Of a DNA stretch of 64,000 nt, positions 1 to 48,430 are shown in pieces. The position numbers and the translations under genes are program-made. The notes under the pieces are model-generated. The model had not been told where the DNA came from, ran no database searches, and worked only from the letters and a program-made list of their open reading frames with translations. The number at the start of each line of letters is the position of its first letter. Within the stretch, counting starts at the first letter, position 1. The DNA lies in NCBI GenBank assembly GCA_903813345.2, contig CAIIXF020000001.1, forward strand, positions 15,376,001-15,440,000, written 5' to 3'. This DNA is from Owenia fusiformis (taxonomy: Eukaryota).

Positions 1-188
1 AATATCGTCAAAATCAAGGGTTTTTGGGGTAAAAAGCGAAAACTGATGATTCAGCAAAAACATTAAATTTGTTCATGAAAATTCCCCTTTTTGCCTCCGT
101 CCAAAATATGTTTCACACTAATAAACTTCAATTCTGGTTGATTCTGAGTAGTTTTAAAAAATTTTGGTCACTTTCACATGTGACTAAT

Positions 189-655
189 AGGCAAAACTGC
201 CCTAATTCACGTCACCATACTAGTCAATGGGCAAAAGGGCAAACGCCTGACTTTTTATCTCGAGTTATGGATTTATGTGGCCTCACTGGCCTATCTGAGG
301 TTCTAAAGCTATGTCTAAGCTACATCTTGACACTAAACTCGATAGGGGCCAATCATCTACTTTTTGAAATAATTGGTCAATTGTGACACTACCCCCTCTC
401 TCTGCAGACACAAATTGAAATTCACAAAAATGAAGGCAAAATTAATACGCCACTTGACTCGAAATTTTCCTTCAGATAACCCAAATAAACGCATTTTCAG
501 AAGAAATGGCATGTTGCCATTGCAAAAAGATTACAACTGTGCCTACATACTAGCTTACTGACTCGTCATGATCACATTTGTGTTGGGCCTACATTTATTT
601 TTGAATACTACTTTTTTCTATTCAGCGGAAGTGACGTATTAGGGCATTTTGGCCT
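189..655. mobile_element. Module A (first copy): 467-bp element with 18-bp TIRs; candidate long terminal direct repeat of a KolobokP-like composite DNA transposon
   Basis: Left end AGGCAAAACTGCCCTAAT versus reverse complement of right end AGGCCAAAATGCCCTAAT (16/18), followed on both sides by ACGTCAC/GTGACGT. Flanked by AAT on both sides. Family assignment is inferred from architecture, size and AG..CT termini only. Confidence 0.75.
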
Positions 656-658
656 AAT

Positions 659-1513
659 AGCCACATGGTTGGATGATTTCTGGCTTTAAATTGCGTTTTT
701 CCAATTTACTAGAGTTTTTCAAGTAGTTTTGTGCAGTTTAAGAATATTCTGACAGCAATTATGAAAAATATGGCTACTTCATTACCCCTGGGGTCATTTT
801 TCCAAGAACCCAATGGTTTTCCTTTAAATTTGACTAGTTTTTCATTTACATCATGAAATCCACTGCCTGATGGTGACATTTTTCAGTATCGTGTCAAGAA
901 TTTGAGTATTTTATTGCATATTGCAATTTTTAGCCAAATCACTGAACCGTGAACCAGAAAATTGGACAAATTTGACCCACTTTTTGGCAAAATCTTACTA
1001 AAATCATCACTTTTTCATACTTTATTCCATTCAACAACCTCCTGATTTGAAAAATGATGACAAATTTGATCAGTTTTGACTCTGGCCTAGAGAATTGGGA
1101 CTTTTGAGATATTTTTAGCTCGAATGTAGTCATTCAGAGTGAACAAATACATCAAAAATTGACACTTAACTCACCAATTTCTGACTGCACCCCCGATATG
1201 TACCTTCTTTCTATACTGGAAACCATAAGATGGGAAATTCAATCTTTATGATGAATAGCAACTCGTTGGCTTCCCCATTTACGACAACAAATGACATTTA
1301 GGGGTCACTAAGGACAAAATTGTAGCCAAATATCGTCAAAATCAAGGGTTTTTGGGGTAAAAAGCGAAAACTGATGATTCAGCAAAAACATTAAATTTGT
1401 TCATGAAAATTCCCCTTTTTGCCTCCGTCCAAAATATGTTTCACACTAATAAACTTCAATTCTGGTTGATTCTGAGTAGTTTTAAAAAATTTTGGTCACT
1501 TTCACATGTGACT
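659..1513. mobile_element. Module B (first full copy): 855-bp non-coding internal region with short inverted ends
   Basis: Begins AGCCACATG and ends CATGTGACT (reverse complement AGTCACATG, 8/9 match). No ORF over about 65 aa lies wholly within it and no transposase motif was recognised. Confidence 0.65.
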
Positions 1514-4500
1514 AATAGGCAAAACTGCCCTAATTCACGTCACCATACTAGTCAATGGGCAAAAGGGCAAACGCCTGACTTTTTATCTCGAGTTATGGAT
1601 TTATGTGGCCTCACTGGCCTATCTGAGGTTCTAAAGCTATGTCTAAGCTACATCTTGACACTAAACTCGATAGGGGCCAATCATCTACTTTTTGAAATAA
1701 TTGGTCAATTGTGACACTACCCCCTCTCTCTGCAGACACAAATTGAAATTCACAAAAATGAAGGCAAAATTAATACGCCACTTGACTCGAAATTTTCCTT
1801 CAGATAACCCAAATAAACGCATTTTCAGAAGAAATGGCATGTTGCCATTGCAAAAAGATTACAACTGTGCCTACATACTAGCTTACTGACTCGTCATGAT
1901 CACATTTGTGTTGGGCCTACATTTATTTTTGAATACTACTTTTTTCTATTCAGCGGAAGTGACGTATTAGGGCATTTTGGCCTAATAGCCACATGGTTGG
2001 ATGATTTCTGGCTTTAAATTGCGTTTTTCCAATTTACTAGAGTTTTTCAAGTAGTTTTGTGCAGTTTAAGAATATTCTGACAGCAATTATGAAAAATATG
2101 GCTACTTCATTACCCCTGGGGTCATTTTTCCAAGAACCCAATGGTTTTCCTTTAAATTTGACTAGTTTTTCATTTACATCATGAAATCCACTGCCTGATG
2201 GTGACATTTTTCAGTATCGTGTCAAGAATTTGAGTATTTTATTGCATATTGCAATTTTTAGCCAAATCACTGAACCGTGAACCAGAAAATTGGACAAATT
2301 TGACCCACTTTTTGGCAAAATCTTACTAAAATCATCACTTTTTCATACTTTATTCCATTCAACAACCTCCTGATTTGAAAAATGATGACAAATTTGATCA
2401 GTTTTGACTCTGGCCTAGAGAATTGGGACTTTTGAGATATTTTTAGCTCGAATGTAGTCATTCAGAGTGAACAAATACATCAAAAATTGACACTTAACTC
2501 ACCAATTTCTGACTGCACCCCCGATATGTACCTTCTTTCTATACTGGAAACCATAAGATGGGAAATTCAATCTTTATGATGAATAGCAACTCGTTGGCTT
2601 CCCCATTTACGACAACAAATGACATTTAGGGGTCACTAAGGACAAAATTGTAGCCAAATATCGTCAAAATCAAGGGTTTTTGGGGTAAAAAGCGAAAACT
2701 GATGATTCAGCAAAAACATTAAATTTGTTCATGAAAATTCCCCTTTTTGCCTCCGTCCAAAATATGTTTCACACTAATAAACTTCAATTCTGGTTGATTC
2801 TGAGTAGTTTTAAAAAATTTTGGTCACTTTCACATGTGACTAATAGGCAAAACTGCCCTAATTCACGTCACCATACTAGTCAATGGGCAAAAGGGCAAAC
2901 GCCTGACTTTTTATCTCGAGTTATGGATTTATGTGGCCTCACTGGCCTATCTGAGGTTCTAAAGCTATGTCTAAGCTACATCTTGACACTAAACTCGATA
3001 GGGGCCAATCATCTACTTTTTGAAATAATTGGTCAATTGTGACACTACCCCCTCTCTCTGCAGACACAAATTGAAATTCACAAAAATGAAGGCAAAATTA
3101 ATACGCCACTTGACTCGAAATTTTCCTTCAGATAACCCAAATAAACGCATTTTCAGAAGAAATGGCATGTTGCCATTGCAAAAAGATTACAACTGTGCCT
3201 ACATACTAGCTTACTGACTCGTCATGATCACATTTGTGTTGGGCCTACATTTATTTTTGAATACTACTTTTTTCTATTCAGCGGAAGTGACGTATTAGGG
3301 CATTTTGGCCTAATAGCCACATGGTTGGATGATTTCTGGCTTTAAATTGCGTTTTTTCCAATTTACTAGAGTTTTTCAAGTAGTTTTGTGCAGTTTAAGA
3401 ATATTCTGACAGCAATTATGAAAAATATGGCTACTTCATTACCCCTGGGGTCATTTTTCCAAGAACCCAATGGTTTTCCTTTAAATTTGACTAGTTTTTC
3501 ATTTACATCATGAAATCCACTGCCTGATGGTGACATTTTTCAGTATCGTGTCAAGAATTTGAGTATTTTATTGCATATTGCAATTTTTAGCCAAATCACT
3601 GAACCGTGAACCAGAAAATTGGACAAATTTGACCCACTTTTTGGCAAAATCTTACTAAAATCATCACTTTTTCATACTTTATTCCATTCAACAACCTCCT
3701 GATTTGAAAAATGATGACAAATTTGATCAGTTTTGACTCTGGCCTAGAGAATTGGGACTTTTGAGATATTTTTAGCTCGAATGTAGTCATTCAGAGTGAA
3801 CAAATACATCAAAAATTGACACTTAACTCACCAATTTCTGACTGCACCCCCGATATGTACCTTCTTTCTATACTGGAAACCATAAGATGGGAAATTCAAT
3901 CTTTATGATGAATAGCAACTCGTTGGCTTCCCCATTTACGACAACAAATGACATTTAGGGGTCACTAAGGACAAAATTGTAGCCAAATATCGTCAAAATC
4001 AAGGGTTTTTGGGGTAAAAAGCGAAAACTGATGATTCAGCAAAAACATTAAATTTGTTCATGAAAATTCCCCTTTTTGCCTCCGTCCAAAATATGTTTCA
4101 CACTAATAAACTTCAATTCTGGTTGATTCTGAGTAGTTTTAAAAAATTTTGGTCACTTTCACATGTGACTAATAGGCAAAACTGCCCTAATTCACGTCAC
4201 CATACTAGTCAATGGGCAAAAGGGCAAACGCCTGACTTTTTATCTCGAGTTATGGATTTATGTGGCCTCACTGGCCTATCTGAGGTTCTAAAGCTATGTC
4301 TAAGCTACATCTTGACACTAAACTCGATAGGGGCCAATCATCTACTTTTTGAAATAATTGGTCAATTGTGACACTACCCCCTCTCTCTGCAGACACAAAT
4401 TGAAATTCACAAAAATGAAGGCAAAATTAATACGCCACTTGACTCGAAATTTTCCTTCAGATAACCCAAATAAACGCATTTTCAGAAGAAATGGCATGTT

Positions 4501-7500
4501 GCCATTGCAAAAAGATTACAACTGTGCCTACATACTAGCTTACTGACTCGTCATGATCACATTTGTGTTGGGCCTACATTTATTTTTGAATACTACTTTT
4601 TTCTATTCAGCGGAAGTGACGTATTAGGGCATTTTGGCCTAATAGCCACATGGTTGGATGATTTCTGGCTTTAAATTGCGTTTTTTCCAATTTACTAGAG
4701 TTTTTCAAGTAGTTTTGTGCAGTTTAAGAATATTCTGACAGCAATTATGAAAAATATGGCTACTTCATTACCCCTGGGGTCATTTTTCCAAGAACCCAAT
4801 GGTTTTCCTTTAAATTTGACTAGTTTTTCATTTACATCATGAAATCCACTGCCTGATGGTGACATTTTTCAGTATCGTGTCAAGAATTTGAGTATTTTAT
4901 TGCATATTGCAATTTTTAGCCAAATCACTGAACCGTGAACCAGAAAATTGGACAAATTTGACCCACTTTTTGGCAAAATCTTACTAAAATCATCACTTTT
5001 TCATACTTTATTCCATTCAACAACCTCCTGATTTGAAAAATGATGACAAATTTGATCAGTTTTGACTCTGGCCTAGAGAATTGGGACTTTTGAGATATTT
5101 TTAGCTCGAATGTAGTCATTCAGAGTGAACAAATACATCAAAAATTGACACTTAACTCACCAATTTCTGACTGCACCCCCGATATGTACCTTCTTTCTAT
5201 ACTGGAAACCATAAGATGGGAAATTCAATCTTTATGATGAATAGCAACTCGTTGGCTTCCCCATTTACGACAACAAATGACATTTAGGGGTCACTAAGGA
5301 CAAAATTGTAGCCAAATATCGTCAAAATCAAGGGTTTTTGGGGTAAAAAGCGAAAACTGATGATTCAGCAAAAACATTAAATTTGTTCATGAAAATTCCC
5401 CTTTTTGCCTCCGTCCAAAATATGTTTCACACTAATAAACTTCAATTCTGGTTGATTCTGAGTAGTTTTAAAAAATTTTGGTCACTTTCACATGTGACTA
5501 ATAGGCAAAACTGCCCTAATTCACGTCACCATACTAGTCAATGGGCAAAAGGGCAAACGCCTGACTTTTTATCTCGAGTTATGGATTTATGTGGCCTCAC
5601 TGGCCTATCTGAGGTTCTAAAGCTATGTCTAAGCTACATCTTGACACTAAACTCGATAGGGGCCAATCATCTACTTTTTGAAATAATTGGTCAATTGTGA
5701 CACTACCCCCTCTCTCTGCAGACACAAATTGAAATTCACAAAAATGAAGGCAAAATTAATACGCCACTTGACTCGAAATTTTCCTTCAGATAACCCAAAT
5801 AAACGCATTTTCAGAAGAAATGGCATGTTGCCATTGCAAAAAGATTACAACTGTGCCTACATACTAGCTTACTGACTCGTCATGATCACATTTGTGTTGG
5901 GCCTACATTTATTTTTGAATACTACTTTTTTCTATTCAGCGGAAGTGACGTATTAGGGCATTTTGGCCTAATAGCCACATGGTTGGATGATTTCTGGCTT
6001 TAAATTGCGTTTTTCCAATTTACTAGAGTTTTTCAAGTAGTTTTGTGCAGTTTAAGAATATTCTGACAGCAATTATGAAAAATATGGCTACTTCATTACC
6101 CCTGGGGTCATTTTTCCAAGAACCCAATGGTTTTCCTTTAAATTTGACTAGTTTTTCATTTACATCATGAAATCCACTGCCTGATGGTGACATTTTTCAG
6201 TATCGTGTCAAGAATTTGAGTATTTTATTGCATATTGCAATTTTTAGCCAAATCACTGAACCGTGAACCAGAAAATTGGACAAATTTGACCCACTTTTTG
6301 GCAAAATCTTACTAAAATCATCACTTTTTCATACTTTATTCCATTCAACAACCTCCTGATTTGAAAAATGATGACAAATTTGATCAGTTTTGACTCTGGC
6401 CTAGAGAATTGGGACTTTTGAGATATTTTTAGCTCGAATGTAGTCATTCAGAGTGAACAAATACATCAAAAATTGACACTTAACTCACCAATTTCTGACT
6501 GCACCCCCGATATGTACCTTCTTTCTATACTGGAAACCATAAGATGGGAAATTCAATCTTTATGATGAATAGCAACTCGTTGGCTTCCCCATTTACGACA
6601 ACAAATGACATTTAGGGGTCACTAAGGACAAAATTGTAGCCAAATATCGTCAAAATCAAGGGTTTTTGGGGTAAAAAGCGAAAACTGATGATTCAGCAAA
6701 AACATTAAATTTGTTCATGAAAATTCCCCTTTTTGCCTCCGTCCAAAATATGTTTCACACTAATAAACTTCAATTCTGGTTGATTCTGAGTAGTTTTAAA
6801 AAATTTTGGTCACTTTCACATGTGACTAATAGGCAAAACTGCCCTAATTCACGTCACCATACTAGTCAATGGGCAAAAGGGCAAACGCCTGACTTTTTAT
6901 CTCGAGTTATGGATTTATGTGGCCTCACTGGCCTATCTGAGGTTCTAAAGCTATGTCTAAGCTACATCTTGACACTAAACTCGATAGGGGCCAATCATCT
7001 ACTTTTTGAAATAATTGGTCAATTGTGACACTACCCCCTCTCTCTGCAGACACAAATTGAAATTCACAAAAATGAAGGCAAAATTAATACGCCACTTGAC
7101 TCGAAATTTTCCTTCAGATAACCCAAATAAACGCATTTTCAGAAGAAATGGCATGTTGCCATTGCAAAAAGATTACAACTGTGCCTACATACTAGCTTAC
7201 TGACTCGTCATGATCACATTTGTGTTGGGCCTACATTTATTTTTGAATACTACTTTTTTCTATTCAGCGGAAGTGACGTATTAGGGCATTTTGGCCTAAT
7301 AGCCACATGGTTGGATGATTTCTGGCTTTAAATTGCGTTTTTCCAATTTACTAGAGTTTTTCAAGTAGTTTTGTGCAGTTTAAGAATATTCTGACAGCAA
7401 TTATGAAAAATATGGCTACTTCATTACCCCTGGGGTCATTTTTCCAAGAACCCAATGGTTTTCCTTTAAATTTGACTAGTTTTTCATTTACATCATGAAA

Positions 7501-10500
7501 TCCACTGCCTGATGGTGACATTTTTCAGTATCGTGTCAAGAATTTGAGTATTTTATTGCATATTGCAATTTTTAGCCAAATCACTGAACCGTGAACCAGA
7601 AAATTGGACAAATTTGACCCACTTTTTGGCAAAATCTTACTAAAATCATCACTTTTTCATACTTTATTCCATTCAACAACCTCCTGATTTGAAAAATGAT
7701 GACAAATTTGATCAGTTTTGACTCTGGCCTAGAGAATTGGGACTTTTGAGATATTTTTAGCTCGAATGTAGTCATTCAGAGTGAACAAATACATCAAAAA
7801 TTGACACTTAACTCACCAATTTCTGACTGCACCCCCGATATGTACCTTCTTTCTATACTGGAAACCATAAGATGGGAAATTCAATCTTTATGATGAATAG
7901 CAACTCGTTGGCTTCCCCATTTACGACAACAAATGACATTTAGGGGTCACTAAGGACAAAATTGTAGCCAAATATCGTCAAAATCAAGGGTTTTTGGGGT
8001 AAAAAGCGAAAACTGATGATTCAGCAAAAACATTAAATTTGTTCATGAAAATTCCCCTTTTTGCCTCCGTCCAAAATATGTTTCACACTAATAAACTTCA
8101 ATTCTGGTTGATTCTGAGTAGTTTTAAAAAATTTTGGTCACTTTCACATGTGACTAATAGGCAAAACTGCCCTAATTCACGTCACCATACTAGTCAATGG
8201 GCAAAAGGGCAAACGCCTGACTTTTTATCTCGAGTTATGGATTTATGTGGCCTCACTGGCCTATCTGAGGTTCTAAAGCTATGTCTAAGCTACATCTTGA
8301 CACTAAACTCGATAGGGGCCAATCATCTACTTTTTGAAATAATTGGTCAATTGTGACACTACCCCCTCTCTCTGCAGACACAAATTGAAATTCACAAAAA
8401 TGAAGGCAAAATTAATACGCCACTTGACTCGAAATTTTCCTTCAGATAACCCAAATAAACGCATTTTCAGAAGAAATGGCATGTTGCCATTGCAAAAAGA
8501 TTACAACTGTGCCTACATACTAGCTTACTGACTCGTCATGATCACATTTGTGTTGGGCCTACATTTATTTTTGAATACTACTTTTTTCTATTCAGCGGAA
8601 GTGACGTATTAGGGCATTTTGGCCTAATAGCCACATGGTTGGATGATTTCTGGCTTTAAATTGCGTTTTTCCAATTTACTAGAGTTTTTCAAGTAGTTTT
8701 GTGCAGTTTAAGAATATTCTGACAGCAATTATGAAAAATATGGCTACTTCATTACCCCTGGGGTCATTTTTCCAAGAACCCAATGGTTTTCCTTTAAATT
8801 TGACTAGTTTTTCATTTACATCATGAAATCCACTGCCTGATGGTGACATTTTTCAGTATCGTGTCAAGAATTTGAGTATTTTATTGCATATTGCAATTTT
8901 TAGCCAAATCACTGAACCGTGAACCAGAAAATTGGACAAATTTGACCCACTTTTTGGCAAAATCTTACTAAAATCATCACTTTTTCATACTTTATTCCAT
9001 TCAACAACCTCCTGATTTGAAAAATGATGACAAATTTGATCAGTTTTGACTCTGGCCTAGAGAATTGGGACTTTTGAGATATTTTTAGCTCGAATGTAGT
9101 CATTCAGAGTGAACAAATACATCAAAAATTGACACTTAACTCACCAATTTCTGACTGCACCCCCGATATGTACCTTCTTTCTATACTGGAAACCATAAGA
9201 TGGGAAATTCAATCTTTATGATGAATAGCAACTCGTTGGCTTCCCCATTTACGACAACAAATGACATTTAGGGGTCACTAAGGACAAAATTGTAGCCAAA
9301 TATCGTCAAAATCAAGGGTTTTTGGGGTAAAAAGCGAAAACTGATGATTCAGCAAAAACATTAAATTTGTTCATGAAAATTCCCCTTTTTGCCTCCGTCC
9401 AAAATATGTTTCACACTAATAAACTTCAATTCTGGTTGATTCTGAGTAGTTTTAAAAAATTTTGGTCACTTTCACATGTGACTAATAGGCAAAACTGCCC
9501 TAATTCACGTCACCATACTAGTCAATGGGCAAAAGGGCAAACGCCTGACTTTTTATCTCGAGTTATGGATTTATGTGGCCTCACTGGCCTATCTGAGGTT
9601 CTAAAGCTATGTCTAAGCTACATCTTGACACTAAACTCGATAGGGGCCAATCATCTACTTTTTGAAATAATTGGTCAATTGTGACACTACCCCCTCTCTC
9701 TGCAGACACAAATTGAAATTCACAAAAATGAAGGCAAAATTAATACGCCACTTGACTCGAAATTTTCCTTCAGATAACCCAAATAAACGCATTTTCAGAA
9801 GAAATGGCATGTTGCCATTGCAAAAAGATTACAACTGTGCCTACATACTAGCTTACTGACTCGTCATGATCACATTTGTGTTGGGCCTACATTTATTTTT
9901 GAATACTACTTTTTTCTATTCAGCGGAAGTGACGTATTAGGGCATTTTGGCCTAATAGCCACATGGTTGGATGATTTCTGGCTTTAAATTGCGTTTTTTC
10001 CAATTTACTAGAGTTTTTCAAGTAGTTTTGTGCAGTTTAAGAATATTCTGACAGCAATTATGAAAAATATGGCTACTTCATTACCCCTGGGGTCATTTTT
10101 CCAAGAACCCAATGGTTTTCCTTTAAATTTGACTAGTTTTTCATTTACATCATGAAATCCACTGCCTGATGGTGACATTTTTCAGTATCGTGTCAAGAAT
10201 TTGAGTATTTTATTGCATATTGCAATTTTTAGCCAAATCACTGAACCGTGAACCAGAAAATTGGACAAATTTGACCCACTTTTTGGCAAAATCTTACTAA
10301 AATCATCACTTTTTCATACTTTATTCCATTCAACAACCTCCTGATTTGAAAAATGATGACAAATTTGATCAGTTTTGACTCTGGCCTAGAGAATTGGGAC
10401 TTTTGAGATATTTTTAGCTCGAATGTAGTCATTCAGAGTGAACAAATACATCAAAAATTGACACTTAACTCACCAATTTCTGACTGCACCCCCGATATGT

Positions 10501-13500
10501 ACCTTCTTTCTATACTGGAAACCATAAGATGGGAAATTCAATCTTTATGATGAATAGCAACTCGTTGGCTTCCCCATTTACGACAACAAATGACATTTAG
10601 GGGTCACTAAGGACAAAATTGTAGCCAAATATCGTCAAAATCAAGGGTTTTTGGGGTAAAAAGCGAAAACTGATGATTCAGCAAAAACATTAAATTTGTT
10701 CATGAAAATTCCCCTTTTTGCCTCCGTCCAAAATATGTTTCACACTAATAAACTTCAATTCTGGTTGATTCTGAGTAGTTTTAAAAAATTTTGGTCACTT
10801 TCACATGTGACTAATAGGCAAAACTGCCCTAATTCACGTCACCATACTAGTCAATGGGCAAAAGGGCAAACGCCTGACTTTTTATCTCGAGTTATGGATT
10901 TATGTGGCCTCACTGGCCTATCTGAGGTTCTAAAGCTATGTCTAAGCTACATCTTGACACTAAACTCGATAGGGGCCAATCATCTACTTTTTGAAATAAT
11001 TGGTCAATTGTGACACTACCCCCTCTCTCTGCAGACACAAATTGAAATTCACAAAAATGAAGGCAAAATTAATACGCCACTTGACTCGAAATTTTCCTTC
11101 AGATAACCCAAATAAACGCATTTTCAGAAGAAATGGCATGTTGCCATTGCAAAAAGATTACAACTGTGCCTACATACTAGCTTACTGACTCGTCATGATC
11201 ACATTTGTGTTGGGCCTACATTTATTTTTGAATACTACTTTTTTCTATTCAGCGGAAGTGACGTATTAGGGCATTTTGGCCTAATAGCCACATGGTTGGA
11301 TGATTTCTGGCTTTAAATTGCGTTTTTCCAATTTACTAGAGTTTTTCAAGTAGTTTTGTGCAGTTTAAGAATATTCTGACAGCAATTATGAAAAATATGG
11401 CTACTTCATTACCCCTGGGGTCATTTTTCCAAGAACCCAATGGTTTTCCTTTAAATTTGACTAGTTTTTCATTTACATCATGAAATCCACTGCCTGATGG
11501 TGACATTTTTCAGTATCGTGTCAAGAATTTGAGTATTTTATTGCATATTGCAATTTTTAGCCAAATCACTGAACCGTGAACCAGAAAATTGGACAAATTT
11601 GACCCACTTTTTGGCAAAATCTTACTAAAATCATCACTTTTTCATACTTTATTCCATTCAACAACCTCCTGATTTGAAAAATGATGACAAATTTGATCAG
11701 TTTTGACTCTGGCCTAGAGAATTGGGACTTTTGAGATATTTTTAGCTCGAATGTAGTCATTCAGAGTGAACAAATACATCAAAAATTGACACTTAACTCA
11801 CCAATTTCTGACTGCACCCCCGATATGTACCTTCTTTCTATACTGGAAACCATAAGATGGGAAATTCAATCTTTATGATGAATAGCAACTCGTTGGCTTC
11901 CCCATTTACGACAACAAATGACATTTAGGGGTCACTAAGGACAAAATTGTAGCCAAATATCGTCAAAATCAAGGGTTTTTGGGGTAAAAAGCGAAAACTG
12001 ATGATTCAGCAAAAACATTAAATTTGTTCATGAAAATTCCCCTTTTTGCCTCCGTCCAAAATATGTTTCACACTAATAAACTTCAATTCTGGTTGATTCT
12101 GAGTAGTTTTAAAAAATTTTGGTCACTTTCACATGTGACTAATAGGCAAAACTGCCCTAATTCACGTCACCATACTAGTCAATGGGCAAAAGGGCAAACG
12201 CCTGACTTTTTATCTCGAGTTATGGATTTATGTGGCCTCACTGGCCTATCTGAGGTTCTAAAGCTATGTCTAAGCTACATCTTGACACTAAACTCGATAG
12301 GGGCCAATCATCTACTTTTTGAAATAATTGGTCAATTGTGACACTACCCCCTCTCTCTGCAGACACAAATTGAAATTCACAAAAATGAAGGCAAAATTAA
12401 TACGCCACTTGACTCGAAATTTTCCTTCAGATAACCCAAATAAACGCATTTTCAGAAGAAATGGCATGTTGCCATTGCAAAAAGATTACAACTGTGCCTA
12501 CATACTAGCTTACTGACTCGTCATGATCACATTTGTGTTGGGCCTACATTTATTTTTGAATACTACTTTTTTCTATTCAGCGGAAGTGACGTATTAGGGC
12601 ATTTTGGCCTAATAGCCACATGGTTGGATGATTTCTGGCTTTAAATTGCGTTTTTCCAATTTACTAGAGTTTTTCAAGTAGTTTTGTGCAGTTTAAGAAT
12701 ATTCTGACAGCAATTATGAAAAATATGGCTACTTCATTACCCCTGGGGTCATTTTTCCAAGAACCCAATGGTTTTCCTTTAAATTTGACTAGTTTTTCAT
12801 TTACATCATGAAATCCACTGCCTGATGGTGACATTTTTCAGTATCGTGTCAAGAATTTGAGTATTTTATTGCATATTGCAATTTTTAGCCAAATCACTGA
12901 ACCGTGAACCAGAAAATTGGACAAATTTGACCCACTTTTTGGCAAAATCTTACTAAAATCATCACTTTTTCATACTTTATTCCATTCAACAACCTCCTGA
13001 TTTGAAAAATGATGACAAATTTGATCAGTTTTGACTCTGGCCTAGAGAATTGGGACTTTTGAGATATTTTTAGCTCGAATGTAGTCATTCAGAGTGAACA
13101 AATACATCAAAAATTGACACTTAACTCACCAATTTCTGACTGCACCCCCGATATGTACCTTCTTTCTATACTGGAAACCATAAGATGGGAAATTCAATCT
13201 TTATGATGAATAGCAACTCGTTGGCTTCCCCATTTACGACAACAAATGACATTTAGGGGTCACTAAGGACAAAATTGTAGCCAAATATCGTCAAAATCAA
13301 GGGTTTTTGGGGTAAAAAGCGAAAACTGATGATTCAGCAAAAACATTAAATTTGTTCATGAAAATTCCCCTTTTTGCCTCCGTCCAAAATATGTTTCACA
13401 CTAATAAACTTCAATTCTGGTTGATTCTGAGTAGTTTTAAAAAATTTTGGTCACTTTCACATGTGACTAATAGGCAAAACTGCCCTAATTCACGTCACCA

Positions 13501-16500
13501 TACTAGTCAATGGGCAAAAGGGCAAACGCCTGACTTTTTATCTCGAGTTATGGATTTATGTGGCCTCACTGGCCTATCTGAGGTTCTAAAGCTATGTCTA
13601 AGCTACATCTTGACACTAAACTCGATAGGGGCCAATCATCTACTTTTTGAAATAATTGGTCAATTGTGACACTACCCCCTCTCTCTGCAGACACAAATTG
13701 AAATTCACAAAAATGAAGGCAAAATTAATACGCCACTTGACTCGAAATTTTCCTTCAGATAACCCAAATAAACGCATTTTCAGAAGAAATGGCATGTTGC
13801 CATTGCAAAAAGATTACAACTGTGCCTACATACTAGCTTACTGACTCGTCATGATCACATTTGTGTTGGGCCTACATTTATTTTTGAATACTACTTTTTT
13901 CTATTCAGCGGAAGTGACGTATTAGGGCATTTTGGCCTAATAGCCACATGGTTGGATGATTTCTGGCTTTAAATTGCGTTTTTCCAATTTACTAGAGTTT
14001 TTCAAGTAGTTTTGTGCAGTTTAAGAATATTCTGACAGCAATTATGAAAAATATGGCTACTTCATTACCCCTGGGGTCATTTTTCCAAGAACCCAATGGT
14101 TTTCCTTTAAATTTGACTAGTTTTTCATTTACATCATGAAATCCACTGCCTGATGGTGACATTTTTCAGTATCGTGTCAAGAATTTGAGTATTTTATTGC
14201 ATATTGCAATTTTTAGCCAAATCACTGAACCGTGAACCAGAAAATTGGACAAATTTGACCCACTTTTTGGCAAAATCTTACTAAAATCATCACTTTTTCA
14301 TACTTTATTCCATTCAACAACCTCCTGATTTGAAAAATGATGACAAATTTGATCAGTTTTGACTCTGGCCTAGAGAATTGGGACTTTTGAGATATTTTTA
14401 GCTCGAATGTAGTCATTCAGAGTGAACAAATACATCAAAAATTGACACTTAACTCACCAATTTCTGACTGCACCCCCGATATGTACCTTCTTTCTATACT
14501 GGAAACCATAAGATGGGAAATTCAATCTTTATGATGAATAGCAACTCGTTGGCTTCCCCATTTACGACAACAAATGACATTTAGGGGTCACTAAGGACAA
14601 AATTGTAGCCAAATATCGTCAAAATCAAGGGTTTTTGGGGTAAAAAGCGAAAACTGATGATTCAGCAAAAACATTAAATTTGTTCATGAAAATTCCCCTT
14701 TTTGCCTCCGTCCAAAATATGTTTCACACTAATAAACTTCAATTCTGGTTGATTCTGAGTAGTTTTAAAAAATTTTGGTCACTTTCACATGTGACTAATA
14801 GGCAAAACTGCCCTAATTCACGTCACCATACTAGTCAATGGGCAAAAGGGCAAACGCCTGACTTTTTATCTCGAGTTATGGATTTATGTGGCCTCACTGG
14901 CCTATCTGAGGTTCTAAAGCTATGTCTAAGCTACATCTTGACACTAAACTCGATAGGGGCCAATCATCTACTTTTTGAAATAATTGGTCAATTGTGACAC
15001 TACCCCCTCTCTCTGCAGACACAAATTGAAATTCACAAAAATGAAGGCAAAATTAATACGCCACTTGACTCGAAATTTTCCTTCAGATAACCCAAATAAA
15101 CGCATTTTCAGAAGAAATGGCATGTTGCCATTGCAAAAAGATTACAACTGTGCCTACATACTAGCTTACTGACTCGTCATGATCACATTTGTGTTGGGCC
15201 TACATTTATTTTTGAATACTACTTTTTTCTATTCAGCGGAAGTGACGTATTAGGGCATTTTGGCCTAATAGCCACATGGTTGGATGATTTCTGGCTTTAA
15301 ATTGCGTTTTTTCCAATTTACTAGAGTTTTTCAAGTAGTTTTGTGCAGTTTAAGAATATTCTGACAGCAATTATGAAAAATATGGCTACTTCATTACCCC
15401 TGGGGTCATTTTTCCAAGAACCCAATGGTTTTCCTTTAAATTTGACTAGTTTTTCATTTACATCATGAAATCCACTGCCTGATGGTGACATTTTTCAGTA
15501 TCGTGTCAAGAATTTGAGTATTTTATTGCATATTGCAATTTTTAGCCAAATCACTGAACCGTGAACCAGAAAATTGGACAAATTTGACCCACTTTTTGGC
15601 AAAATCTTACTAAAATCATCACTTTTTCATACTTTATTCCATTCAACAACCTCCTGATTTGAAAAATGATGACAAATTTGATCAGTTTTGACTCTGGCCT
15701 AGAGAATTGGGACTTTTGAGATATTTTTAGCTCGAATGTAGTCATTCAGAGTGAACAAATACATCAAAAATTGACACTTAACTCACCAATTTCTGACTGC
15801 ACCCCCGATATGTACCTTCTTTCTATACTGGAAACCATAAGATGGGAAATTCAATCTTTATGATGAATAGCAACTCGTTGGCTTCCCCATTTACGACAAC
15901 AAATGACATTTAGGGGTCACTAAGGACAAAATTGTAGCCAAATATCGTCAAAATCAAGGGTTTTTGGGGTAAAAAGCGAAAACTGATGATTCAGCAAAAA
16001 CATTAAATTTGTTCATGAAAATTCCCCTTTTTGCCTCCGTCCAAAATATGTTTCACACTAATAAACTTCAATTCTGGTTGATTCTGAGTAGTTTTAAAAA
16101 ATTTTGGTCACTTTCACATGTGACTAATAGCCACATGGTTGGATGATTTCTGGCTTTAAATTGCGTTTTTCCAATTTACTAGAGTTTTTCAAGTAGTTTT
16201 GTGCAGTTTAAGAATATTCTGACAGCAATTATGAAAAATATGGCTACTTCATTACCCCTGGGGTCATTTTTCCAAGAACCCAATGGTTTTCCTTTAAATT
16301 TGACTAGTTTTTCATTTACATCATGAAATCCACTGCCTGATGGTGACATTTTTCAGTATCGTGTCAAGAATTTGAGTATTTTATTGCATATTGCAATTTT
16401 TAGCCAAATCACTGAACCGTGAACCAGAAAATTGGACAAATTTGACCCACTTTTTGGCAAAATCTTACTAAAATCATCACTTTTTCATACTTTATTCCAT

Positions 16501-19500
16501 TCAACAACCTCCTGATTTGAAAAATGATGACAAATTTGATCAGTTTTGACTCTGGCCTAGAGAATTGGGACTTTTGAGATATTTTTAGCTCGAATGTAGT
16601 CATTCAGAGTGAACAAATACATCAAAAATTGACACTTAACTCACCAATTTCTGACTGCACCCCCGATATGTACCTTCTTTCTATACTGGAAACCATAAGA
16701 TGGGAAATTCAATCTTTATGATGAATAGCAACTCGTTGGCTTCCCCATTTACGACAACAAATGACATTTAGGGGTCACTAAGGACAAAATTGTAGCCAAA
16801 TATCGTCAAAATCAAGGGTTTTTGGGGTAAAAAGCGAAAACTGATGATTCAGCAAAAACATTAAATTTGTTCATGAAAATTCCCCTTTTTGCCTCCGTCC
16901 AAAATATGTTTCACACTAATAAACTTCAATTCTGGTTGATTCTGAGTAGTTTTAAAAAATTTTGGTCACTTTCACATGTGACTAATAGGCAAAACTGCCC
17001 TAATTCACGTCACCATACTAGTCAATGGGCAAAAGGGCAAACGCCTGACTTTTTATCTCGAGTTATGGATTTATGTGGCCTCACTGGCCTATCTGAGGTT
17101 CTAAAGCTATGTCTAAGCTACATCTTGACACTAAACTCGATAGGGGCCAATCATCTACTTTTTGAAATAATTGGTCAATTGTGACACTACCCCCTCTCTC
17201 TGCAGACACAAATTGAAATTCACAAAAATGAAGGCAAAATTAATACGCCACTTGACTCGAAATTTTCCTTCAGATAACCCAAATAAACGCATTTTCAGAA
17301 GAAATGGCATGTTGCCATTGCAAAAAGATTACAACTGTGCCTACATACTAGCTTACTGACTCGTCATGATCACATTTGTGTTGGGCCTACATTTATTTTT
17401 GAATACTACTTTTTTCTATTCAGCGGAAGTGACGTATTAGGGCATTTTGGCCTAATAGCCACATGGTTGGATGATTTCTGGCTTTAAATTGCGTTTTTCC
17501 AATTTACTAGAGTTTTTCAAGTAGTTTTGTGCAGTTTAAGAATATTCTGACAGCAATTATGAAAAATATGGCTACTTCATTACCCCTGGGGTCATTTTTC
17601 CAAGAACCCAATGGTTTTCCTTTAAATTTGACTAGTTTTTCATTTACATCATGAAATCCACTGCCTGATGGTGACATTTTTCAGTATCGTGTCAAGAATT
17701 TGAGTATTTTATTGCATATTGCAATTTTTAGCCAAATCACTGAACCGTGAACCAGAAAATTGGACAAATTTGACCCACTTTTTGGCAAAATCTTACTAAA
17801 ATCATCACTTTTTCATACTTTATTCCATTCAACAACCTCCTGATTTGAAAAATGATGACAAATTTGATCAGTTTTGACTCTGGCCTAGAGAATTGGGACT
17901 TTTGAGATATTTTTAGCTCGAATGTAGTCATTCAGAGTGAACAAATACATCAAAAATTGACACTTAACTCACCAATTTCTGACTGCACCCCCGATATGTA
18001 CCTTCTTTCTATACTGGAAACCATAAGATGGGAAATTCAATCTTTATGATGAATAGCAACTCGTTGGCTTCCCCATTTACGACAACAAATGACATTTAGG
18101 GGTCACTAAGGACAAAATTGTAGCCAAATATCGTCAAAATCAAGGGTTTTTGGGGTAAAAAGCGAAAACTGATGATTCAGCAAAAACATTAAATTTGTTC
18201 ATGAAAATTCCCCTTTTTGCCTCCGTCCAAAATATGTTTCACACTAATAAACTTCAATTCTGGTTGATTCTGAGTAGTTTTAAAAAATTTTGGTCACTTT
18301 CACATGTGACTAATAGGCAAAACTGCCCTAATTCACGTCACCATACTAGTCAATGGGCAAAAGGGCAAACGCCTGACTTTTTATCTCGAGTTATGGATTT
18401 ATGTGGCCTCACTGGCCTATCTGAGGTTCTAAAGCTATGTCTAAGCTACATCTTGACACTAAACTCGATAGGGGCCAATCATCTACTTTTTGAAATAATT
18501 GGTCAATTGTGACACTACCCCCTCTCTCTGCAGACACAAATTGAAATTCACAAAAATGAAGGCAAAATTAATACGCCACTTGACTCGAAATTTTCCTTCA
18601 GATAACCCAAATAAACGCATTTTCAGAAGAAATGGCATGTTGCCATTGCAAAAAGATTACAACTGTGCCTACATACTAGCTTACTGACTCGTCATGATCA
18701 CATTTGTGTTGGGCCTACATTTATTTTTGAATACTACTTTTTTCTATTCAGCGGAAGTGACGTATTAGGGCATTTTGGCCTAATAGCCACATGGTTGGAT
18801 GATTTCTGGCTTTAAATTGCGTTTTTCCAATTTACTAGAGTTTTTCAAGTAGTTTTGTGCAGTTTAAGAATATTCTGACAGCAATTATGAAAAATATGGC
18901 TACTTCATTACCCCTGGGGTCATTTTTCCAAGAACCCAATGGTTTTCCTTTAAATTTGACTAGTTTTTCATTTACATCATGAAATCCACTGCCTGATGGT
19001 GACATTTTTCAGTATCGTGTCAAGAATTTGAGTATTTTATTGCATATTGCAATTTTTAGCCAAATCACTGAACCGTGAACCAGAAAATTGGACAAATTTG
19101 ACCCACTTTTTGGCAAAATCTTACTAAAATCATCACTTTTTCATACTTTATTCCATTCAACAACCTCCTGATTTGAAAAATGATGACAAATTTGATCAGT
19201 TTTGACTCTGGCCTAGAGAATTGGGACTTTTGAGATATTTTTAGCTCGAATGTAGTCATTCAGAGTGAACAAATACATCAAAAATTGACACTTAACTCAC
19301 CAATTTCTGACTGCACCCCCGATATGTACCTTCTTTCTATACTGGAAACCATAAGATGGGAAATTCAATCTTTATGATGAATAGCAACTCGTTGGCTTCC
19401 CCATTTACGACAACAAATGACATTTAGGGGTCACTAAGGACAAAATTGTAGCCAAATATCGTCAAAATCAAGGGTTTTTGGGGTAAAAAGCGAAAACTGA

Positions 19501-22500
19501 TGATTCAGCAAAAACATTAAATTTGTTCATGAAAATTCCCCTTTTTGCCTCCGTCCAAAATATGTTTCACACTAATAAACTTCAATTCTGGTTGATTCTG
19601 AGTAGTTTTAAAAAATTTTGGTCACTTTCACATGTGACTAATAGCCACATGGTTGGATGATTTCTGGCTTTAAATTGCGTTTTTCCAATTTACTAGAGTT
19701 TTTCAAGTAGTTTTGTGCAGTTTAAGAATATTCTGACAGCAATTATGAAAAATATGGCTACTTCATTACCCCTGGGGTCATTTTTCCAAGAACCCAATGG
19801 TTTTCCTTTAAATTTGACTAGTTTTTCATTTACATCATGAAATCCACTGCCTGATGGTGACATTTTTCAGTATCGTGTCAAGAATTTGAGTATTTTATTG
19901 CATATTGCAATTTTTAGCCAAATCACTGAACCGTGAACCAGAAAATTGGACAAATTTGACCCACTTTTTGGCAAAATCTTACTAAAATCATCACTTTTTC
20001 ATACTTTATTCCATTCAACAACCTCCTGATTTGAAAAATGATGACAAATTTGATCAGTTTTGACTCTGGCCTAGAGAATTGGGACTTTTGAGATATTTTT
20101 AGCTCGAATGTAGTCATTCAGAGTGAACAAATACATCAAAAATTGACACTTAACTCACCAATTTCTGACTGCACCCCCGATATGTACCTTCTTTCTATAC
20201 TGGAAACCATAAGATGGGAAATTCAATCTTTATGATGAATAGCAACTCGTTGGCTTCCCCATTTACGACAACAAATGACATTTAGGGGTCACTAAGGACA
20301 AAATTGTAGCCAAATATCGTCAAAATCAAGGGTTTTTGGGGTAAAAAGCGAAAACTGATGATTCAGCAAAAACATTAAATTTGTTCATGAAAATTCCCCT
20401 TTTTGCCTCCGTCCAAAATATGTTTCACACTAATAAACTTCAATTCTGGTTGATTCTGAGTAGTTTTAAAAAATTTTGGTCACTTTCACATGTGACTAAT
20501 AGGCAAAACTGCCCTAATTCACGTCACCATACTAGTCAATGGGCAAAAGGGCAAACGCCTGACTTTTTATCTCGAGTTATGGATTTATGTGGCCTCACTG
20601 GCCTATCTGAGGTTCTAAAGCTATGTCTAAGCTACATCTTGACACTAAACTCGATAGGGGCCAATCATCTACTTTTTGAAATAATTGGTCAATTGTGACA
20701 CTACCCCCTCTCTCTGCAGACACAAATTGAAATTCACAAAAATGAAGGCAAAATTAATACGCCACTTGACTCGAAATTTTCCTTCAGATAACCCAAATAA
20801 ACGCATTTTCAGAAGAAATGGCATGTTGCCATTGCAAAAAGATTACAACTGTGCCTACATACTAGCTTACTGACTCGTCATGATCACATTTGTGTTGGGC
20901 CTACATTTATTTTTGAATACTACTTTTTTCTATTCAGCGGAAGTGACGTATTAGGGCATTTTGGCCTAATAGCCACATGGTTGGATGATTTCTGGCTTTA
21001 AATTGCGTTTTTCCAATTTACTAGAGTTTTTCAAGTAGTTTTGTGCAGTTTAAGAATATTCTGACAGCAATTATGAAAAATATGGCTACTTCATTACCCC
21101 TGGGGTCATTTTTCCAAGAACCCAATGGTTTTCCTTTAAATTTGACTAGTTTTTCATTTACATCATGAAATCCACTGCCTGATGGTGACATTTTTCAGTA
21201 TCGTGTCAAGAATTTGAGTATTTTATTGCATATTGCAATTTTTAGCCAAATCACTGAACCGTGAACCAGAAAATTGGACAAATTTGACCCACTTTTTGGC
21301 AAAATCTTACTAAAATCATCACTTTTTCATACTTTATTCCATTCAACAACCTCCTGATTTGAAAAATGATGACAAATTTGATCAGTTTTGACTCTGGCCT
21401 AGAGAATTGGGACTTTTGAGATATTTTTAGCTCGAATGTAGTCATTCAGAGTGAACAAATACATCAAAAATTGACACTTAACTCACCAATTTCTGACTGC
21501 ACCCCCGATATGTACCTTCTTTCTATACTGGAAACCATAAGATGGGAAATTCAATCTTTATGATGAATAGCAACTCGTTGGCTTCCCCATTTACGACAAC
21601 AAATGACATTTAGGGGTCACTAAGGACAAAATTGTAGCCAAATATCGTCAAAATCAAGGGTTTTTGGGGTAAAAAGCGAAAACTGATGATTCAGCAAAAA
21701 CATTAAATTTGTTCATGAAAATTCCCCTTTTTGCCTCCGTCCAAAATATGTTTCACACTAATAAACTTCAATTCTGGTTGATTCTGAGTAGTTTTAAAAA
21801 ATTTTGGTCACTTTCACATGTGACTAATAGGCAAAACTGCCCTAATTCACGTCACCATACTAGTCAATGGGCAAAAGGGCAAACGCCTGACTTTTTATCT
21901 CGAGTTATGGATTTATGTGGCCTCACTGGCCTATCTGAGGTTCTAAAGCTATGTCTAAGCTACATCTTGACACTAAACTCGATAGGGGCCAATCATCTAC
22001 TTTTTGAAATAATTGGTCAATTGTGACACTACCCCCTCTCTCTGCAGACACAAATTGAAATTCACAAAAATGAAGGCAAAATTAATACGCCACTTGACTC
22101 GAAATTTTCCTTCAGATAACCCAAATAAACGCATTTTCAGAAGAAATGGCATGTTGCCATTGCAAAAAGATTACAACTGTGCCTACATACTAGCTTACTG
22201 ACTCGTCATGATCACATTTGTGTTGGGCCTACATTTATTTTTGAATACTACTTTTTTCTATTCAGCGGAAGTGACGTATTAGGGCATTTTGGCCTAATAG
22301 CCACATGGTTGGATGATTTCTGGCTTTAAATTGCGTTTTTCCAATTTACTAGAGTTTTTCAAGTAGTTTTGTGCAGTTTAAGAATATTCTGACAGCAATT
22401 ATGAAAAATATGGCTACTTCATTACCCCTGGGGTCATTTTTCCAAGAACCCAATGGTTTTCCTTTAAATTTGACTAGTTTTTCATTTACATCATGAAATC

Positions 22501-25500
22501 CACTGCCTGATGGTGACATTTTTCAGTATCGTGTCAAGAATTTGAGTATTTTATTGCATATTGCAATTTTTAGCCAAATCACTGAACCGTGAACCAGAAA
22601 ATTGGACAAATTTGACCCACTTTTTGGCAAAATCTTACTAAAATCATCACTTTTTCATACTTTATTCCATTCAACAACCTCCTGATTTGAAAAATGATGA
22701 CAAATTTGATCAGTTTTGACTCTGGCCTAGAGAATTGGGACTTTTGAGATATTTTTAGCTCGAATGTAGTCATTCAGAGTGAACAAATACATCAAAAATT
22801 GACACTTAACTCACCAATTTCTGACTGCACCCCCGATATGTACCTTCTTTCTATACTGGAAACCATAAGATGGGAAATTCAATCTTTATGATGAATAGCA
22901 ACTCGTTGGCTTCCCCATTTACGACAACAAATGACATTTAGGGGTCACTAAGGACAAAATTGTAGCCAAATATCGTCAAAATCAAGGGTTTTTGGGGTAA
23001 AAAGCGAAAACTGATGATTCAGCAAAAACATTAAATTTGTTCATGAAAATTCCCCTTTTTGCCTCCGTCCAAAATATGTTTCACACTAATAAACTTCAAT
23101 TCTGGTTGATTCTGAGTAGTTTTAAAAAATTTTGGTCACTTTCACATGTGACTAATAGCCACATGGTTGGATGATTTCTGGCTTTAAATTGCGTTTTTCC
23201 AATTTACTAGAGTTTTTCAAGTAGTTTTGTGCAGTTTAAGAATATTCTGACAGCAATTATGAAAAATATGGCTACTTCATTACCCCTGGGGTCATTTTTC
23301 CAAGAACCCAATGGTTTTCCTTTAAATTTGACTAGTTTTTCATTTACATCATGAAATCCACTGCCTGATGGTGACATTTTTCAGTATCGTGTCAAGAATT
23401 TGAGTATTTTATTGCATATTGCAATTTTTAGCCAAATCACTGAACCGTGAACCAGAAAATTGGACAAATTTGACCCACTTTTTGGCAAAATCTTACTAAA
23501 ATCATCACTTTTTCATACTTTATTCCATTCAACAACCTCCTGATTTGAAAAATGATGACAAATTTGATCAGTTTTGACTCTGGCCTAGAGAATTGGGACT
23601 TTTGAGATATTTTTAGCTCGAATGTAGTCATTCAGAGTGAACAAATACATCAAAAATTGACACTTAACTCACCAATTTCTGACTGCACCCCCGATATGTA
23701 CCTTCTTTCTATACTGGAAACCATAAGATGGGAAATTCAATCTTTATGATGAATAGCAACTCGTTGGCTTCCCCATTTACGACAACAAATGACATTTAGG
23801 GGTCACTAAGGACAAAATTGTAGCCAAATATCGTCAAAATCAAGGGTTTTTGGGGTAAAAAGCGAAAACTGATGATTCAGCAAAAACATTAAATTTGTTC
23901 ATGAAAATTCCCCTTTTTGCCTCCGTCCAAAATATGTTTCACACTAATAAACTTCAATTCTGGTTGATTCTGAGTAGTTTTAAAAAATTTTGGTCACTTT
24001 CACATGTGACTAATAGGCAAAACTGCCCTAATTCACGTCACCATACTAGTCAATGGGCAAAAGGGCAAACGCCTGACTTTTTATCTCGAGTTATGGATTT
24101 ATGTGGCCTCACTGGCCTATCTGAGGTTCTAAAGCTATGTCTAAGCTACATCTTGACACTAAACTCGATAGGGGCCAATCATCTACTTTTTGAAATAATT
24201 GGTCAATTGTGACACTACCCCCTCTCTCTGCAGACACAAATTGAAATTCACAAAAATGAAGGCAAAATTAATACGCCACTTGACTCGAAATTTTCCTTCA
24301 GATAACCCAAATAAACGCATTTTCAGAAGAAATGGCATGTTGCCATTGCAAAAAGATTACAACTGTGCCTACATACTAGCTTACTGACTCGTCATGATCA
24401 CATTTGTGTTGGGCCTACATTTATTTTTGAATACTACTTTTTTCTATTCAGCGGAAGTGACGTATTAGGGCATTTTGGCCTAATAGCCACATGGTTGGAT
24501 GATTTCTGGCTTTAAATTGCGTTTTTCCAATTTACTAGAGTTTTTCAAGTAGTTTTGTGCAGTTTAAGAATATTCTGACAGCAATTATGAAAAATATGGC
24601 TACTTCATTACCCCTGGGGTCATTTTTCCAAGAACCCAATGGTTTTCCTTTAAATTTGACTAGTTTTTCATTTACATCATGAAATCCACTGCCTGATGGT
24701 GACATTTTTCAGTATCGTGTCAAGAATTTGAGTATTTTATTGCATATTGCAATTTTTAGCCAAATCACTGAACCGTGAACCAGAAAATTGGACAAATTTG
24801 ACCCACTTTTTGGCAAAATCTTACTAAAATCATCACTTTTTCATACTTTATTCCATTCAACAACCTCCTGATTTGAAAAATGATGACAAATTTGATCAGT
24901 TTTGACTCTGGCCTAGAGAATTGGGACTTTTGAGATATTTTTAGCTCGAATGTAGTCATTCAGAGTGAACAAATACATCAAAAATTGACACTTAACTCAC
25001 CAATTTCTGACTGCACCCCCGATATGTACCTTCTTTCTATACTGGAAACCATAAGATGGGAAATTCAATCTTTATGATGAATAGCAACTCGTTGGCTTCC
25101 CCATTTACGACAACAAATGACATTTAGGGGTCACTAAGGACAAAATTGTAGCCAAATATCGTCAAAATCAAGGGTTTTTGGGGTAAAAAGCGAAAACTGA
25201 TGATTCAGCAAAAACATTAAATTTGTTCATGAAAATTCCCCTTTTTGCCTCCGTCCAAAATATGTTTCACACTAATAAACTTCAATTCTGGTTGATTCTG
25301 AGTAGTTTTAAAAAATTTTGGTCACTTTCACATGTGACTAATAGGCAAAACTGCCCTAATTCACGTCACCATACTAGTCAATGGGCAAAAGGGCAAACGC
25401 CTGACTTTTTATCTCGAGTTATGGATTTATGTGGCCTCACTGGCCTATCTGAGGTTCTAAAGCTATGTCTAAGCTACATCTTGACACTAAACTCGATAGG

Positions 25501-40500: not shown

Positions 40501-41278
40501 TAAGAATATTCTGACAGCAATTATGAAAAATATGGCTACTTCATTACCCCTGGGGTCATTTTTCCAAGAACCCAATGGTTTTCCTTTAAATTTGACTAGT
40601 TTTTCATTTACATCATGAAATCCACTGCCTGATGGTGACATTTTTCAGTATCGTGTCAAGAATTTGAGTATTTTATTGCATATTGCAATTTTTAGCCAAA
40701 TCACTGAACCGTGAACCAGAAAATTGGACAAATTTGACCCACTTTTTGGCAAAATCTTACTAAAATCATCACTTTTTCATACTTTATTCCATTCAACAAC
40801 CTCCTGATTTGAAAAATGATGACAAATTTGATCAGTTTTGACTCTGGCCTAGAGAATTGGGACTTTTGAGATATTTTTAGCTCGAATGTAGTCATTCAGA
40901 GTGAACAAATACATCAAAAATTGACACTTAACTCACCAATTTCTGACTGCACCCCCGATATGTACCTTCTTTCTATACTGGAAACCATAAGATGGGAAAT
41001 TCAATCTTTATGATGAATAGCAACTCGTTGGCTTCCCCATTTACGACAACAAATGACATTTAGGGGTCACTAAGGACAAAATTGTAGCCAAATATCGTCA
41101 AAATCAAGGGTTTTTGGGGTAAAAAGCGAAAACTGATGATTCAGCAAAAACATTAAATTTGTTCATGAAAATTCCCCTTTTTGCCTCCGTCCAAAATATG
41201 TTTCACACTAATAAACTTCAATTCTGGTTGATTCTGAGTAGTTTTAAAAAATTTTGGTCACTTTCACATGTGACTAAT

Positions 41279-41745
41279 AGGCAAAACTGCCCTAATTCAC
41301 GTCACCATACTAGTCAATGGGCAAAAGGGCAAACGCCTGACTTTTTATCTCGAGTTATGGATTTATGTGGCCTCACTGGCCTATCTGAGGTTCTAAAGCT
41401 ATGTCTAAGCTACATCTTGACACTAAACTCGATAGGGGCCAATCATCTACTTTTTGAAATAATTGGTCAATTGTGACACTACCCCCTCTCTCTGCAGACA
41501 CAAATTGAAATTCACAAAAATGAAGGCAAAATTAATACGCCACTTGACTCGAAATTTTCCTTCAGATAACCCAAATAAACGCATTTTCAGAAGAAATGGC
41601 ATGTTGCCATTGCAAAAAGATTACAACTGTGCCTACATACTAGCTTACTGACTCGTCATGATCACATTTGTGTTGGGCCTACATTTATTTTTGAATACTA
41701 CTTTTTTCTATTCAGCGGAAGTGACGTATTAGGGCATTTTGGCCT
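41279..41745. mobile_element. Terminal copy of module A, forming the right boundary of the array
   Basis: Complete copy ending ...TTTTGGCCT, followed by unique sequence TTGCAAAAGAGG instead of AATAGCC. Confidence 0.9.
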
Positions 41746-47952: not shown

Positions 47953-48430
47953 TATAGTGAGCTATTGCAATCACTCACTTTTCAGTCTGTATGTATGTCC
48001 ATCCACCAGTCTGTCAACAATAGTGGCATGTTTTAAATTTTCCTGTTTTAGGTTATTGTTTATCATCAATTGAGAAACCCTCCCCCATGACTCCTGGTTC
48101 AAATGCTTGCAAGCCTATTTTCAAAATGGCCACCATTCGAGATGTCATGCACTGTATAGTAAAAACCCATCTCACTTTTAACAGTCATTTTATGAGATAA
48201 TTTTGTAAAAGGGAAATGGGCAATGTTTCAATTGCTTTACAATTGATTTACTTTTGGGGCATTTTGGGTAAATTTTAATGTGGGCAGTTTGGATTTTCCA
48301 TCCTAAAATCATGTCTGTAAAGTCTTTAGTTTTGGGCCAAACAATTTCATTCATCATTCTGAAATTTTAGTGACTGCACTCTTATCTTACCACTTACTTT
48401 ATATATGTTGCATATTTTCAGGGTTGAAGA

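Follow-up and report, generated by a model that had tools for sequence, protein, structure and literature searches.

In KolobokP DNA transposons a middle part (INT) is enclosed by a pair of long terminal direct repeats (LTDRs), each about 450 or 660 bp long and with terminal inverted repeats (TIRs) of its own (Kojima and Bao 2022, PMC9587614). The LTDR TIRs are 11–18 bp long with RR...YY termini, and insertions are flanked by a 3–5-bp target duplication without strong specificity (PMC9587614). Described forms include solo LTDRs, (LTDR-INT)n-LTDR multimers, INT-INT joints at which a single terminal motif is retained, and LTDR-INT and INT-LTDR copies, with LTDR-INT attributed to excision of an LTDR; LTDR loss has likewise been reported to leave a trimmed INT end beside a kept host duplication, and three solo INTs were read as products of sequential LTDR loss (PMC9587614). 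Autonomous copies code for a DDD/E transposase along with, on the opposite strand, a His-Me nuclease; circular LTDR or LTDR-INT intermediates and nuclease-induced unequal crossover have been proposed (PMC9587614). A 2026 review (PMC13565253) describes the role of the nuclease, and the KolobokP mechanism, as unconfirmed. Bacterial composite transposons and IS26 translocatable units share the arrangement of two identical TIR-bounded units flanking a middle, with either a unit or the whole being mobile, but they carry the transposase in the flanking units, whereas the autonomous KolobokP partner carries it in the middle (PMC9587614).

Here we describe a long tandem array in Owenia fusiformis that is, with high confidence, a multimer built from copies of one non-autonomous KolobokP DNA transposon, its structure real and mostly ordinary.

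Structure of the array

Positions 1–41744 of the window, the 64-kb stretch of DNA that was analysed (C1:15376001-15440000, C1 being the contig that carries it, in a 499.5-Mb genome), are a tandem array of two module types, A and B. Its features, in window coordinates, are:

1..41744, + strand, window part of the array, read as an (LTDR-INT)n-LTDR multimer (whole array C1:15304881-15417744)
190..654, + strand, LTDR (module A), 465 bp, GG...CC, outer limits set by the target duplications of dispersed copies
190..206, + strand, left terminal inverted repeat of the LTDR, 17 bp, matching the right end at 15/17 positions
638..654, - strand, right terminal inverted repeat of the LTDR, partner of 190..206
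655..1517, + strand, non-coding INT of 863 bp (module B with its two TAATA), TAATA...TAATA, homologous to the KolobokP-5N1 INT
655..667, + strand, left INT tip, pairing as an inverted match with the right tip (11/13)
1505..1517, - strand, right INT tip, inverted partner of the left tip
16125..16129, + strand, INT-INT (B-B) joint with a single TAATA, LTDR missing
19639..19643, + strand, INT-INT (B-B) joint with a single TAATA
23153..23157, + strand, INT-INT (B-B) joint with a single TAATA
41280..41744, + strand, last LTDR of the array, followed by TTT
41745..41747, + strand, right 3-bp target duplication TTT (left copy at C1:15304878-15304880)

Including adjacent stretches, the whole array comprises 74 LTDRs (A) and 91 INTs (B) over 112,864 bp, a length given by the genome assembly alone. 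Its joints are 73 A-B, 73 B-A, 18 B-B and 0 A-A, and of the 165 modules 137 show no difference from the reference copies, while the remainder differ by small indels and two substitutions. The motif CTAATAG, which an initial annotation of the window had noted at every A-B, B-A and B-B junction, is indeed present at 62/62 junctions in the window (30 B-A, 29 A-B and 3 B-B; it occurs once more outside the array) and at 164/164 in the whole array. This junction reflects only that B starts and ends with TAATA. The accompanying parse, in which AG...CT modules are joined by AAT, sets the limits one base off: the array is flanked by TTT, and the A and T belong to B.

TTT lies to the left of the first A and to the right of the last A, the left flank having been predicted beforehand. 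A duplication on both sides of the whole array indicates that it grew in place from one insertion. The empty site, composed of window 41745-41754 and the left flank, is CTTTTG-G-TTT-G-CAAAAG, so that the TTT target lies at the centre of a short inverted symmetry.

The INT has no match to a transposase or nuclease, and the array unit has none to eight KolobokP proteins by tblastn. One stop-to-stop frame in the unit, of 117 codons across the INT-LTDR joint, has no Pfam match, and the unit has no match in Rfam. RNA reads on the unit are thin, mostly 90–99% alike and uninformative for this array itself.

Other features lie to the right of the array. Window 42157-43000 contains a very abundant short repeat, marked by high depth in DNA and RNA sequencing runs and by loose ends that both kinds of run have in common near 42219 and 42269. 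A 1675-codon open frame at 48428-53455 (+), with an N-terminal RING finger and a long Ser/Pro/Thr-rich repeat region at 51.7–52.7 kb, is presumably a TOPORS-like gene. At 54906-55658, 5.2 copies of a 145-bp unit stand in tandem and contain CAAAATGGCGGCC-like motifs; this is probably another repeat family.

LTDR ends and relationship to KolobokP

Module A is an LTDR and carries the mobile transposon ends. Dispersed A copies show 3-bp target duplications only if A is parsed as GG...CC, and among the 27 loci at which both outer A ends are complete, 18 carry a 3- or 4-bp duplication (in 5000 permutations of the flanks, duplications of at least three bases occurred at a mean of 3.6 and a maximum of 10 loci). 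The nine loci without a duplication of at least three bases include three that are explained (L093 is cut by the locus edge, and L105 and L112 abut INT sequence) and six that are not. Solo A, A-B-A and A-B-A-B-A copies are all found flanked by target duplications, with A-B-A monomers at L041, L067+L068, L088, L089, L108, L109 and L111. Two solo LTDRs have later insertions within them, at L115 a reverse-transcriptase element, and their outer duplications (AGA at L115, ACA at L116) are intact.

These duplications bear on the proposal in the initial annotation that A and B are two MITE families with AG...CT ends, each inserting at the ends of the other and sharing an AAT target duplication, or that CTAATAG is a symmetric recombination site. 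The invariance of CTAATAG at 164/164 joints fits such a reading, as do the inverted tips of both modules, but AAT lies on both sides at 0/27 loci, and A...T immediately outside GG...CC is found at 7/27 even though many of these loci were picked by a pattern (82 matches) that demands A at one end, so that the sample leans toward the proposal. Genome-wide, 159 A-type ends lack an A before GG versus 82 that have it (the two patterns use different filters); among 100 listed of the 159, nine of ten facing end pairs show a 3-bp duplication by eye. With 50 B-B joints against 0 A-TAATA-A joints, and with B homologous to a published INT (see below), we consider the proposal extremely improbable.

GG...CC ends with a 3-bp duplication are typical of PIF/Harbinger (Tourist-like) MITEs, and such features would fit A taken alone. 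Unlike in that group, the duplications are highly variable here, with a length of 4 bp in some cases, and at L105 a Kolobok-type transposase and a His-Me nuclease go with an A-type LTDR.

The array family has the features of KolobokP: an LTDR of 465 bp, near the smaller published size; GG...CC termini with a 15/17 inverted match; target duplications of 3 or 4 bp (18/27 loci, with TTT for the array); and solo LTDRs, multimers and INT-INT joints that lose one tip motif. Published KolobokP LTDRs begin with GG in 18/18 cases and end with CC in 16/18, and 4 of 10 published OwFu INTs run TAATA...TAATA (Data S1 of PMC9587614). Homology is provided by module B, which aligns end to end with a genomic KolobokP-5N1 INT (L170, 861 bp, found by a motif from Data S1 of PMC9587614) with identity at 535 of 802 aligned bases (z 17.7). 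When B was compared with 900 bp from either end of six coding KolobokP INTs, the best z was 2.6. For A, comparison with six LTDRs of coding KolobokP copies gave no similarity except z 3.8 (KolobokP-2 type), and that with the KolobokP-5N1 LTDR gave z 0.4. Because A is not clearly similar to the other KolobokP LTDRs tested, either LTDRs have been exchanged around an INT that the families have in common, or LTDR sequence changes more rapidly than INT sequence.

KolobokP-5N1_OwFu is the closest counterpart: it is likewise non-autonomous, with a monomer of 1797 bp (1793–1797 bp here), an LTDR of 468 vs 465 bp, an INT of 861 vs 863 bp, TAATA...TAATA in both, and a shared 3-bp duplication and 17-bp TIR (PMC9587614, Table S1 and Data S1). 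It differs in an LTDR without detectable relation to A and in an INT tip match of 8/13 vs 11/13 in the array family. KolobokP-1_MeMe, KolobokP-4N1_CorFlu and KolobokP-3_OwFu also resemble the array in their LTDRs of about 450 bp with TIRs and RR...YY termini and in forming multimers; the multimers in the accessible parts of PMC9587614 have a few units, whereas the array has 91 INTs. Unlike coding KolobokP, the array family has no coding INT. The termini of A and B are absent from the ten OwFu LTDRs and from the record ends of Data S1 of PMC9587614; with the A termini missing there, the family appears to be unnamed in that data set. The array family is thus a new non-autonomous KolobokP member in a lineage that has itself already been described.

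Intact coding KolobokP elements are present in the genome. At L105, an INT ending in TAATA is followed directly by an LTDR with 78% identity to A (z 37.6); this INT contains a His-Me nuclease (PF05551, E 1.8e-10) and, on the strand opposite the nuclease, transposase fragments that match five KolobokP transposases (tblastn E down to 3e-20). The L105 copy is broken, and the sequence covers its right side, with the left end outside. No A-type LTDRs flank a transposase gene in 20 stretches fetched around 115 PF20700 matches; the sole A among these stretches is a partial one about 3 kb from a KolobokP-2-type transposase (L153). The lack of an intact autonomous partner among these stretches counts against the KolobokP reading, as do the dissimilarity of the LTDRs and the six unexplained loci.

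Arrays are also formed by other KolobokP types. Contigs C807, C313, C418 and C443 (L127-L148, L161, L162) carry tandem arrays of a transposase-coding KolobokP-3-type element with 711-codon open frames spaced at about 3346 or 3821 bp, many units lacking an LTDR. At C12:10564064-10618856 and C7:25566614-25577091, KolobokP-5N1 motifs are spaced at about 1331 and 857 bp, which suggests that KolobokP-5N1 forms arrays in which LTDR-INT and INT-INT units are mixed in the same way.

INT-INT joints and the loss of LTDRs

B-B joints total 50, of which 18 are in this array and 32 in stretches of six other arrays, where 60 INT-LTDR and 0 LTDR-LTDR joints were also counted; joints that have been amplified are not independent of one another. 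The A-AAT-A junctions that the initial annotation suggested searching for did not turn up (0 A-TAATA-A in this array or the six others). An excess of INT-INT joints over a complete lack of LTDR-LTDR joints supports loss directed at the LTDR. Exactly one 5-mer is kept at 47/50 INT-INT joints (all 18 here and 29/32 in the other arrays), and the altered joints in the other arrays are -2, +2 and +4. INT-INT joints in the coding KolobokP-3 arrays of this genome keep either TAATA or TATTA, so either INT tip can be lost. A separate array of more diverged B (95%; L090-L092, C11:7.355-7.385 Mb) has a recurring LTDR-INT joint with 4 extra bases in three copies, an amplified footprint.

The single 5-mer at 47/50 joints is also the product expected if the host deleted LTDRs by microhomology-mediated repair between the flanking TAATA copies, without a transposase. 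The same repair acting between the TAATA copies that flank an INT would yield A-TAATA-A, seen 0 times, and the altered joints look like excision footprints; we therefore judge this origin of the B-B joints unlikely.

A further alternative is that B is an INT whose inverted tips also act as transposon ends, allowing it to be excised or circularised alone as an 858-bp circle. It would account for the 11/13 tip match, for insertions that begin or end with B (L052, L053/L096, L057, L062, L065; those at L052 and L057 have no clear duplication) and for runs of up to five INTs (L096). However, the INT that ends L097 and L093-L095 has lost 2 bp, and the 3-bp host target duplication is kept, as LTDR loss predicts, and PMC9587614 reads its solo INTs as sequential LTDR loss. 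A-TAATA-A joints are lacking, and the 16 non-array B ends (from an exact-match pattern that is not exhaustive) include no full-length free B. B is thus without demonstrated mobility of its own, and this alternative is very unlikely.

The initial annotation had pictured B as a TIR-bounded cassette within a modular system from which A, B or A-B-A can be cut out. Of this, the inverted tips stand, A and A-B-A do move and A can be lost; free B copies with their own duplication and excision of B in the manner of A do not. That annotation had itself listed three observations as counting against its view, namely confinement of B to this context, lack of A-A junctions, and a 9-bp inverted match not conserved in related families. 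These are largely what was found, the 9-bp match not recurring letter for letter in the KolobokP-5N1 INT.

Under the favoured reading as a KolobokP multimer, Kolobok transposase from an autonomous relative would have moved the founder in trans, and LTDR-INT units would then have been added by unequal exchange or by re-entry of an LTDR-INT circle, two routes not told apart here. An LTDR would sometimes have been excised and the two INT tips rejoined via the shared TAATA, giving B-B joints that were subsequently amplified; the weakly inverted tips of B would be the flanks of two inner LTDR ends. Excision and multimer formation are read from footprints only.

Four sequencing runs compared with window 40417-43000 contain, among the joints listed, no LTDR-to-LTDR joint via TAATA. 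The contigs of these runs cannot show circles, the joint of an INT circle being equal to a genomic B-B joint, and their depths give no copy number. A-type LTDR ends lie 8 bp apart at C4:23703910 (its spacer recurs as a joint in sequencing run X2) and at C8:34804314-34804355, one pair apparently tandem and the other right end to right end. Their 8-bp spacers are unrelated to the junction motif, and the pairs may represent local re-insertion next to an existing end.

Inverted INT tips

The tips of B are inverted at 8/9 positions (nominal chance 2e-4) or, including TAATA, at 11/13 (nominal chance 3e-5), both values being post hoc. Across eight KolobokP families in this genome, comparison of the 13 bases that open the INT with the reverse complement of the 13 that close it gives a match at 63/104 positions, compared with a mean of 27.6 and a maximum of 45 in 20,000 sets of random INT windows. 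Pairing of tips within the same family (63) exceeds that between permuted families (44, P 0.0009), and positions 6–13 alone match at 29/64 vs 15.2 at random (permuted 21.5, P 0.04); the eight families are related rather than independent, so that these P values overstate the significance. Published INTs of other species have similar short inverted tips, judged by eye. The inverted tips are thus real but are not a B-specific TIR; they are a weak, lineage-wide feature. The accessible parts of PMC9587614 remark on one INT that starts and ends with TATA and say nothing more on tips, and no description of tip symmetry was found in the literature on KolobokP and composite elements within a search that left most subscription papers outside.

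Two known types of site were compared with these ends and rejected. Academ-like elements have TAG...CTA ends, and such ends for B would leave spacers of unequal length, 3, 3 and 1 bp, across the three kinds of joint. Resemblance of the inner joints to the I-PpoI site (as printed in bioRxiv 10.1101/808659) is 4/15 at both joints in the array family and 3–7/15 in six other families, holding for the KolobokP-4 type alone (11/15).

The tips may be fossil target sites. That they serve as a functional inner-end signal is a tentative idea, which we think doubtful but worth stating, drawn from the sequence pattern. With identical LTDRs, only the flanking INT tip could tell the transposase or His-Me nuclease that an end is internal, and symmetric tips (TA-x-TA-G...) on the two inner ends would govern how frequently an LTDR is excised. 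Such tips would also let INTs rejoin cleanly with one another and serve as interchangeable cassettes, which would explain how homologous INTs (B and 5N1, and 2N2 as judged by eye from its start) come to lie between LTDRs without detectable similarity.

The array adds one unnamed non-autonomous family to the described KolobokP lineage. As a multimer of great length with nearly identical units, it also exemplifies the change of a transposon into satellite-like DNA at a single site. Should the tips be functional, they would offer a testable site for how KolobokP keeps its composite structure and for what the His-Me nuclease cuts.
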